A stretch of DNA of 36,999 nucleotides from a virus (taxonomy: Duplodnaviria; Heunggongvirae; Uroviricota; Caudoviricetes), in IMG/VR virus record IMGVR_UViG_2874920711_000003. One strand, written 5' to 3'. Position numbers and translations under genes: made by a program. Shown here in pieces: positions 7,580-9,079 of the stretch. Every line of letters starts with the position of its first letter. Position 1 is the first letter of the stretch. The notes under the pieces were generated by a model, which saw nothing but the letters and a program-made list of their open reading frames with translations, was not told the DNA's origin and did not search any database.

Positions 7580-7625
7580 AATTACCTCTCGCTTTTCTGC
7601 AATAAAAAAGGCACCATTTCTGGTG

Positions 7626-9042
7626 TAATGCCAGTCAGTTAAGCAACTGACTGGCTCTTTTTCGGGGCTGTGGGTATTTCCAGGGCCTCTCCTTTACCAC
7701 TCTCGGAAGGCCCTTCCCTTCTCGTCGGTAATTTCACAAGTTGTCCCATACTTGCAAGATCGCGCATCAGCTCCGGTATACGTCCCGGTGAAGCGCCCTG
7801 CAATGTCATCAGCATTCTCATCACCATTCCGCATGATTCTGAGAAACTCAGTTGATTCGGCCAGTAACCTTTCAGATGTTCCGCCATTTTAATCATCTGA
7901 TATCTCACCAGATTATAAGCCAGTAAGACACCCCACAGCTCTTGCTCCACAAGCTCCGGCTTTTTACTTCTCAGCGTCAGCCTGCTCAGTTGCATCGTCT
8001 GTTTTATCTCCCTGTATCCCAGTTCGATTTCCCAGCGATGACTGTACAGATCCGCCATTTCTCCTCCGGGGAAGCGCATGGCGTCCGTCATCGACGTCAG
8101 CAGATGGCAGACTTTTCCTTTGCGCGTCACGGTCAGCAGGCGGGCTGTCACTTCATTTCCCAGTCCCGGCCACTTTTTTCGTGCCTGCGGGCTGGTTTTC
8201 AGCTTCACCAGATGATCGCCTTTACCCAGTTTTCTGAGCTCTTCATATTGCGCTCCCTTTCTGAGAGGTATCATCCAGTGGCGGTGTTCTCCCGCCAGGC
8301 TCCAGGCATTTAACAGTCCCAGTGAGTAATAACCTTTATCCATTAACGTCAGAGTGTTATCGCCGGTTTGTTCTATAAGTTGCTCAGCAAGCTCATTTTC
8401 GCTGTTCTTCATCGTGCCGAAGGCTGCAGCCGTCAGCAGATGGCTGGTCAGTTCCATCTGGCAGACCATTTTGACCTGCGGGTAGAGCGCCGGGTTCCCG
8501 GCATGTGTCTGGCGGGGAAGGCTGCATCGTTCTCTGGTGTATCCGGTGTGCGCCAGAACACACCATCGATGGCCAGCAGGGTCAGGCCGCACCAGTGCGG
8601 ATGCGGCGTGGCGTTATGCCAGAGCTGCGCTGTTTTCGTGAACACGCGGCGGACAGCCTCACTTCCCAGGCGCTGGCGGGCCTGAATAACGGCACTGGGG
8701 CAACGAAGGGCGATTGCCCGGCAGCATGATGTCCAGGCGATTCACAATCTGGTGAAGAGGTTCTTTACGCTCAAGCGCCATGCCAACAATACACCAGACC
8801 ATCATTTCGAGGGAAGACGGCGCTTGCGTAGCGTTACAGTACCTGATTCGGCAAGGCAACGAGAGATGAGTTCGGGTCGAGGTAATCCCCAGAGAAGTCA
8901 GTGGGTTACGCAGAGAATCGTAACGGGATACCAGATCAAGAGCCTGTCCAATGTGCATAAAAAAATCCGGAAACAAGTGAGCGTTTCCGGATTCTTACAC
9001 AGCCACTGGATCGGTCAACTGATCCTTAACTGAACGGCATTA
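7626..9042 (-). mobile_element. IS4 insertion sequence with 18-bp terminal inverted repeats, flanked by a 14-bp direct repeat
   Basis: TAATGCCAGTCAGTTAAG at 7626 and CTTAACTGAACGGCATTA ending at 9042. Flanking direct repeat CACCATTTCTGGTG at 7612..7625 and 9043..9056. Internal ORFs match IS4 transposase as recalled. Confidence 0.85.
7639..8958 (-). CDS. insG: IS4 transposase (DDE, YREIK motif), frame-broken into three pieces
   Basis: Pieces 8659..8976 ([16 protein letters not shown]...), 8448..8645 and 7639..8592 (...[17 protein letters not shown]...). Confidence 0.8.
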
Positions 9043-9079
9043 CACCATTTCTGGTGCCCTTATATGTGTTATAACAATT

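Follow-up and report, generated by a model that had tools for sequence, protein, structure and literature searches.

IS4 inserted symmetrically into the predicted terminator hairpin between J and lom of a cdt-carrying lambdoid prophage, with a 14-bp target duplication

The window analyzed in this work, that is, the whole stretch of 36,999 nucleotides of the Caudoviricetes record IMGVR_UViG_2874920711_000003, carries a copy of the insertion sequence (IS) IS4 between the phage tail tip gene J and lom, a gene for an outer membrane protein. The best overall explanation, to which we assign a probability of about 0.88, is that IS4 transposed into the hairpin that follows J by virtue of its target preference, and that this event gave rise to the 14-bp direct repeat at its borders. 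The features of the insertion are the following, with no strand being given for the repeats.

7626-9042, minus strand: IS4 insertion sequence, defined by end-to-end alignment to the reference copy L001, by matches annotated as IS4 and by Pfam domains on open reading frame (ORF) fragments.
7626-7643: IS4 terminal inverted repeat at the transposase 3' end (TAATGCCAGTCAGTTAAG), from the alignment and a match of 16 of 18 positions with the other end.
9025-9042: IS4 terminal inverted repeat at the transposase 5' end, from the alignment, with a T-to-A change at 9034.
7612-7625: lom-proximal target-site duplication CACCATTTCTGGTG, from a direct repeat search and empty-site comparison.
9043-9056: J-proximal target-site duplication CACCATTTCTGGTG, from the same two analyses.
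7604-7611, minus strand: left target remnant, consisting of A6 (the T6 of the predicted terminator on the J strand) and GG, the outer two stem bases, from the sequence and the intact site in L005.
9057-9061, minus strand: right target remnant CCCTT, outer stem bases now parted from the T-tract, from the sequence and folding.

The identity of the element and the position of its ends were established with an annotated 1426-bp IS4 copy located in the rpoD–mug spacer of strain CFSAN029787 (L001), to which the window copy aligns base for base from TAATGCC to GGCATTA. The window copy starts with TAATGCCAGTCAG, finishes with GAACGGCATTA and measures 1417 bp, as compared to 1426 bp for the reference copies. 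It shares up to 99.4% identity, gaps included, over 100% of the query with features annotated as 'IS4-like element IS4 family transposase', and at least 80% of the IS4 length is present in 2,521 E. coli records. Its terminal inverted repeats, TAATGCCAGTCAGTTAAG and TAATGCCGTTCAGTTAAG, start with TAATGCC, and the Pfam domains Nterm_IS4 (PF13006) and DDE_Tnp_1 (PF01609) were found on two fragments of the transposase gene, which is oriented as J and lom. Full-length near-identity, inverted repeats with 16 of 18 identical positions and a single DDE transposase with an IS4 N-terminal domain thus bear out the name IS4 that had been given to this element in a previous sequence-only reading. The IS4 of E. 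coli K-12 (ISfinder IS4, 1426 bp) has the same sequence save for one substitution and nine 1-nt gaps, the same ends and the same type of target, namely an A-tract, a palindrome of ~18-20 bp and a T-rich side. The window copy differs from it in having a repeat of 14 bp instead of the quoted 11-13 bp and in its new location, the J–lom junction of a prophage; the classical IS4 insertion sites are galT, the pheST attenuator terminator and the K-12 chromosomal site.

The exact 14-bp repeat CACCATTTCTGGTG borders the element with a start-to-start spacing of 1431. Deleting IS4 and one copy of this repeat in silico rebuilds an empty site that reads ...AATAAAAAAGGCACCATTTCTGGTGCCCTTAT..., or ...AATAAAAAAGGCACCATTTCTGGTGCCCTTATATG... 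in its longer context. With up to 99% identity, a 1-kb query of this empty site has uninterrupted matches in approximately 1,977 E. coli genomes, and the matching sites are annotated 'gpJ' and 'Ail/Lom family outer membrane beta-barrel protein' across the junction. Furthermore, at least 80% of the length of a 312-bp junction query is present in 86 phage records, including lambdoid and Shiga toxin (Stx)-converting phages and phage ev099. The junctions of strain NCTC9082 (L005) and of ev099 (L007) correspond to the reconstruction base for base across the hairpin, so that removal of the IS does restore a GC hairpin followed by T6 on the minus strand, as the sequence-only reading had proposed. Since the difference between the occupied and the empty site is IS4 plus 14 bp, the duplication is exactly 14 bp long and the palindrome does not inflate its length, which removes the doubt, voiced in that reading, that the boundaries might be off by one or two bases or that the repeat might appear longer than it is. 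Palindrome inflation was rejected by the same empty-site comparison.

Insertion at this hairpin is a recurrent event. Eight loci from other assemblies, some of which may stem from the same genomes, possess IS4 at the J–lom hairpin in either orientation, and the same 14-bp repeat is present at all seven that hold both junctions. The orientation of the window is shared by CP026836.1, CP027027.1 and the viral-collection contigs L128 and L131. The first of these, called S. boydii (PMC12817139), has an IS4 of 1426 bp with an intact transposase of 442 amino acids. The opposite orientation is found in CP026875.1, with flanks that are 99.6% identical to those of the window, in L129 and L130, which represent a divergent prophage with a lom that is 91.6% identical to that of the window, and in AERN01000046.1, where a single junction is present on the contig. 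Because the same site is occupied in two orientations, the J–lom hairpin has been hit by at least two independent transpositions, and probably by three. The occupied junction was absent from 5,426 complete E. coli genomes, for which both the window orientation and a synthetic junction of opposite orientation were searched, and it was not found in a scan of metagenome contigs. Three short-read contigs that encode an identical Lom protein (L137, L138 and L139) end at the equivalent of position 7620, inside the 14-bp repeat. Such ends are as expected from a collapsed IS at this site, and further occupied sites may therefore hide in draft assemblies.

The target of the window resembles that of IS4 in general. 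When one genome of each species was scanned for the IS4 end, 120 loci from many Enterobacterales were obtained, with 116 distinct flanks. A run of at least four A that ends 12-19 nt from the IS end was present in 73% of these flanks, as compared to 3.9% of random positions, and the base composition reaches 84% A at -18 and -19 and 84% G at -1; the opposite flank, when reverse complemented, has the same base profile. Repeat statistics were derived from 31 distinct complete copies with intact repeats, which were 11 bp long in 5, 12 bp in 13, 13 bp in 10 and 14 bp in 3 cases. Between the repeat and either tract there are most often 3 nt, longer repeats go with a longer A-to-T span (Spearman 0.65, p = 8e-4), and the repeat is centered on the palindrome dyad exactly in 18 of the 31 sites and to within 0.5 nt in 23. 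The first repeat base is C in 26 and the last base G in 27 of these sites. The target in the window, A6-GG-[CACCATTTCTGGTG]-CCC-TTAT, follows this pattern, with coinciding dyad and repeat center. A hairpin of this type (AAACGC|CACCTTTTCGGTG|GCGTTTTTT) also harbors the reference copy L001, whose repeat measures 13 bp, and the targets of IS4 copies after mukB and after typA have a similar look. A target weight matrix was built from other sites with the window excluded and was then run on the emptied window of ~35.5 kb, where the J–lom hairpin emerged as the third-best locus and the exact site and stagger ranked 25th of 142,014 combinations. IS4 thus inserts symmetrically into A-tract/GC-palindrome/T-tract DNA that has the shape of a terminator, often of a bidirectional one, and its repeat length follows the target. 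It is the quoted repeat range, and not the membership of this element in IS4, that needs adjusting, the surveyed range being 11-14 bp.

Several side observations were made in this survey. Two A-tract/GC-palindrome sites at ~21777-21789 and 20652-20662 (aaaataaaaaacCCGCCAGCGGCGGgtg and acgcatCCCGGAAGCGCtactttttttt) have a matrix score equal to or above that of the J–lom hairpin and are unoccupied. Five complete IS4 copies (L026, L036, L039, L045 and L100) were without matching flanking repeats; in L100, one flank appears to derive from the rpoD–mug site and the other to have a different sequence. These copies may be due to recombination between IS4 elements or to assembly error. In the mukB–ldtD spacer, the same poorly palindromic site is occupied in two E. 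coli strains (L002 and L004) with repeats of 13 bp and 12 bp, respectively, which suggests independent hits with staggers one base apart where the target has no clear symmetry.

The hairpin that was split has the properties of a predicted intrinsic terminator. On the strand of J and lom, the intact site reads AAGGGCACCAGAAATGGTGCCTTT followed by TTTATTGCAG and was scored as terminator-like by a pattern scan of L005. Its GC-rich stem consists of the 7-bp GGCACCA/TGGTGCC, can be extended to 10 pairs and is closed by a GAAA loop, whereas the U-tract TTTTTTATT lies directly 3' of the stem. The RNA is predicted to fold with -15.6 kcal/mol (z = -4.7), and none of 200 shuffled sequences folded as well. 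The hairpin begins 18-21 nt past the J stop codon; its placement shortly after J was therefore read correctly from the sequence alone, but the distance of about 25 nt was not. The end of the T-tract is 24 nt before the lom start codon. In phage lambda, the equivalent position is taken by a hairpin of unrelated sequence, CGTCCGGGAACGGGCG, with TTTTATTAT behind it, and the J–lom feature is thus conserved in position and not in sequence. A GC stem-loop, a U-tract, the placement after a coding region and a position kept in relatives all argue for the label of a terminator between J and lom that the sequence-only reading had attached to it, and we consider this prediction quite probable. A second terminator-like hairpin is located after lom, at 6953-6932.

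The insertion very probably came about as follows. IS4, by means of its DDE transposase, transposed into the hairpin between the J stop codon and lom in a lambdoid, cdt-carrying prophage. Both strand transfers would have taken place at points symmetric about the dyad, each 2-3 bp inward of the boundary, that of the A-tract on one side and that of the T-side on the other, and gap repair would then have duplicated the loop and the inner stem, which together make up 14 bp. The site would have been chosen for its fit to the arrangement A-tract, ~3 nt, C...(GC-rich palindrome)...G, ~3 nt, T-tract, a preferred shape that is that of an intrinsic terminator, often bidirectional, and the repeat length of 11-14 bp would be set by half-site spacing and parity, with no fixed stagger. 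Tentatively, each end of the transposition complex may read its own half-site (A-tract, ~3 nt, C), or recognition may act on a target extruded into a hairpin or cruciform; in either case, how long the duplication is and whether its length is odd or even would report target geometry, and the splitting of terminators by IS4 might be near neutral because of the inward-facing terminators of the element. Cuts at a fixed distance from a cruciform junction were considered and not adopted, since the A- and T-tracts extend the palindrome and the stem base is no defined landmark. The constant quantity is a distance of ~3 nt from the boundary between the A/T-tract and the GC stem.

Both remnants of the hairpin and the ends of IS4 were inspected with respect to transcription. 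On the J side, a 6-bp stem with no U-tract remains, with a predicted -8.4 kcal/mol (z = -0.7), and because of the missing U-tract the J-proximal terminator would have been destroyed by the insertion. The lom-side remnant retains a 5-bp stem followed by CC and U6 (CCTTTTTT after the residual 5-bp hairpin); it is still detected in the window and is now situated behind the 11-bp end hairpin of IS4. IS4 itself contains two inward-facing hairpins, one with U7 at 8996-8955 on the minus strand, immediately before the transposase start codon (-24 kcal/mol), and another with a U-run at 7630-7661 on the plus strand (-18.7 kcal/mol). Transcription from J that is not antiterminated would probably stop ~60-90 nt after entering IS4, whichever way the element is oriented, so that the loss of the original terminator may be largely compensated, whereas Q-antiterminated late transcription should read through and be little affected. 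A promoter-like site on the minus strand, at 9018-8991, overlaps the hairpin at 8996-8955 with its -10 element. Transcripts that IS4 initiates there would therefore miss the 5' hairpin arm, and read-through transcripts would contain the whole structure.

Some points weigh against this account. The T-side of the J–lom target is weak (CCCTTAT), so that the fit to the consensus is one-sided, and about one quarter of the IS4 flanks have no A-tract. The two repeat lengths at the mukB–ldtD site imply that the target does not fully fix the repeat length. The putative role of the hairpin as a terminator is deduced from sequence and predicted fold, and a promoter scan located no promoter-like (sigma-70) site for lom between the hairpin and the lom start codon, for which reason any effect on lom is conjecture.

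This last point leads to an alternative according to which the hairpin is not a functional terminator but a mere palindrome to the liking of IS4, or a regulatory structure of the lom 5' untranslated region, so that the insertion would have no transcriptional meaning. The gene lom was reported to be expressed in lambda lysogens (PMC7067206), and in view of the missing promoter its transcripts may need to cross the hairpin. However, the GC-rich stem of 7-10 bp directly followed by T6, the z value of its fold, its location ~20 nt past a stop codon and the presence of an unrelated hairpin with a T-run at the same place in lambda make this alternative unlikely. Equally to be weighed is the idea that a single ancestral insertion was spread among prophages by homologous recombination and that the hairpin is no recurrent hot spot. 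The copies in the orientation of the window do have flanks that are 99.5-100% identical and are probably identical by descent, but the opposite orientation is present both next to the nearly identical flanks of CP026875.1 and in the divergent prophage of L129 and L130, and recombination cannot flip an element between 14-bp repeats. Given that the weight matrix predicts the J–lom site independently, we regard a single insertion as very improbable.

Two further alternatives concern the length of the repeat and the state of the element. For IS4, ISfinder gives a repeat range of 11-13 bp. A review that is silent on terminators puts the IS4 subgroup at 10-13 bp (PMC2266710), and the 14 bp of the window fall outside both ranges, as would be expected if wrongly placed IS ends or the palindrome had lengthened the repeat artificially and the true duplication measured 11-13 bp. 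We give this possibility practically no credence, since the subtraction of the empty from the occupied site leaves precisely IS4 and 14 bp, the element begins and stops at the same bases as the 1426-bp reference, whose own repeat has 13 bp, and two unrelated Rahnella copies of IS4 likewise have 14-bp repeats. The alignment to the IS4 reference leaves a repeat of 14 bp and hence of at least 11 bp, and the length that the sequence-only reading had assigned is also that of the other occupied loci and of 3 of the 31 surveyed copies. As for the state of the element, IS4 may be seen as a decayed and immobile pseudogene in which nine frameshifts are real: the transposase frame is broken by nine 1-nt deletions, and one inverted repeat contains a real T-to-A change common to CP027027.1. 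Yet all nine deletions lie in G or C homopolymers next to a single substitution with respect to the reference, the near-identical copy in L131 is without eight of the nine, and similar deletions are spread through the flanking phage genes and a neighboring IS2, all of which renders a genuine pseudogene quite unlikely. It was rejected as the leading reading on account of the all-deletion, homopolymer-only pattern and the comparison with L131.

The data on the coding region illustrate this further.

7639-8958, minus strand: IS4 transposase coding region, present as the fragments 7639-8592 and 8659-8976, with nine 1-nt deletions in G/C runs.

Relative to L001, the window copy differs by the T-to-A substitution at 9034 and these nine deletions, which account for its 9 missing bp; in CP026836.1 and CP026875.1, the IS4 at this hairpin has the full 1426 bp. 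Sister transposases are in frame, with gene calls of 442 amino acids in L132 and L134 and an ORF of 448 amino acids in L128. L131 has no mismatch to window positions 4528-10215 and shares the change at 9034, and CP027027.1 (L135) differs from the window by 33 single-base gaps and no mismatch over 6.2 kb. When compared with near-identical assemblies, further 1-nt deletions, mostly in C runs, occur across J, the tail-fibre gene and IS2; examples, almost all C and essentially without substitutions, are at 3006, 3692, 3754, 4182, 5330, 5645, 5830, 12624 and 12836. Homopolymer deletions fragment many phage ORFs in the window. As the differences are indels only, are confined to homopolymers and come without substitutions, the transposase 'frameshifts' are likely to be mostly assembly errors of the long-read consensus type (CP026824.1). 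This NCBI record (L133), the source of the window, matches it at 100% identity over 6.6 kb. The substitution at 9034 was seen in none of 41 other surveyed right ends, and its occurrence in both CP027027.1 and L131 indicates that it is real. This change converts a GATC (Dam) site in the IS4 inverted repeat into GAAC.

The flanking genes were identified as follows.

6980-7579, minus strand: lom, Ail/Lom outer membrane beta-barrel protein of 199 amino acids (Pfam Ail_Lom, E = 1e-120, positions 1-199 of 199).
9080-12237, minus strand: 3' part of J (tail tip / host specificity), ORFs 9080-10120 and 10117-12237, from Pfam.

The J domains are Phage_Tail_Tip, Ig_GpJ_C, FNIII-A_GpJ and Phage-tail_3, and the ORF at 9080-10120 represents the C-terminal part with Phage_Tail_Tip and Ig_GpJ_C; J ends with the stop codon TGA at 9082-9080 (minus strand). 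That the flanks are J and lom, as first read from the sequence, is also backed by the annotation of homologous and 99%-identical empty loci. J is split into ORFs of 706 and 346 amino acids near 10117-10127. At the nearest difference from NCTC9082, ~10127, one base is missing from a stretch that is not a homopolymer (GGATAT to GG-TAT), and the C-terminal ORF of 346 amino acids is also found in CP026836.1 (L132) and CP027027.1 (L135), whereas J is intact (1137 amino acids) in CP026875.1 (L134). This frameshift is therefore probably a real mutation that inactivates the tail tip gene. Downstream of the tail-fibre assembly gene, on the minus strand, the window contains a cdtB-like ORF (162-983, Exo_endo_phos) and a cdtA ORF (980-1666, CDtoxinA), and BLAST matches of these ORFs (162-1666) are annotated cdtA and cdtB. 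Their presence identifies the window as a lambdoid prophage with cytolethal distending toxin genes. An IS2 at 4945-6272 interrupts the side tail-fibre gene and is bordered by the 5-bp repeats GTGAC at 4940-4944 and 6273-6277. It has 1328 bp and shares 99.3% identity with features bearing the annotation 'IS3-like element IS2 family transposase'. IS2 is 1331 bp long, and the 3-bp shortfall presumably reflects the same deletion errors.

Links emerge between the target choice of IS4 and that of other mobile elements. Mayaux et al. reportedly described, in 1984, a pseudo-palindromic IS4 target consensus of AAA-N20-TTT together with an IS4 in the pheST attenuator terminator, and the targets surveyed here agree with that consensus. 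In the accessible literature, no usable statement of an IS4 target consensus or of a link between IS4 and terminators was found, and symmetric half-sites with dyad-centered repeats of 11-14 bp were not found stated there either. For bacterial group II introns, Robart, Seo and Zimmerly (2007) reportedly described insertion behind intrinsic terminators. These introns and Tn7, at the glmS terminator region, resemble IS4 in using terminator regions as harmless insertion sites, but they act by retrohoming or are TnsD-directed, respectively, and they come to lie next to the hairpin instead of symmetrically within it. Another example is IS231A of the IS4 family, which, according to Hallet et al. in 1994, is said to favor GGG(N)5CCC with bent A/T-rich DNA on either side. 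Like IS4, it has a symmetric GC-rich core with A/T-tract flanks that is cut symmetrically about the dyad, whereas its repeats of 10-12 bp (PMC2266710), its core motif and its Bacillus host are different. Elements that target repetitive extragenic palindromes (REP) or bacterial interspersed mosaic elements (BIME), such as IS1397, ISKpn1, ISRm22 and others (PMC1525189), share with IS4 the use of extragenic palindromes downstream of genes, that is, of 'safe' intergenic sites. These elements recognize a repeated sequence family, whereas IS4 sites have in common an architecture of A-tract, hairpin and T-tract and only a loose sequence.

Both IS4 and its manner of choosing targets are known, and the insertion itself is ordinary IS4 behavior. 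What this work adds is small, namely a reproducible 14-bp duplication, a recurrent IS4 hot spot in Shigella-type cdt prophages and a quantitative picture of the target. For the window, the insertion carries little weight, as it adds a further IS to a toxin-carrying prophage in decay, with a frameshifted J and a tail-fibre gene split by IS2. The apparent transposase pseudogene serves as a warning, because it is most likely an assembly artefact caused by homopolymer errors. Furthermore, predicted IS4 hot spots are of help for the annotation of IS4 junctions and for the reading of contig breaks in Shigella and E. coli assemblies. As a modest result of wider scope, IS4 represents a clean natural case of a transposon that homes to terminator-shaped DNA, with a duplication length that follows the symmetry of the target, and this symmetry explains the long-quoted variable repeat of 11-13 bp and extends its range to 14 bp.

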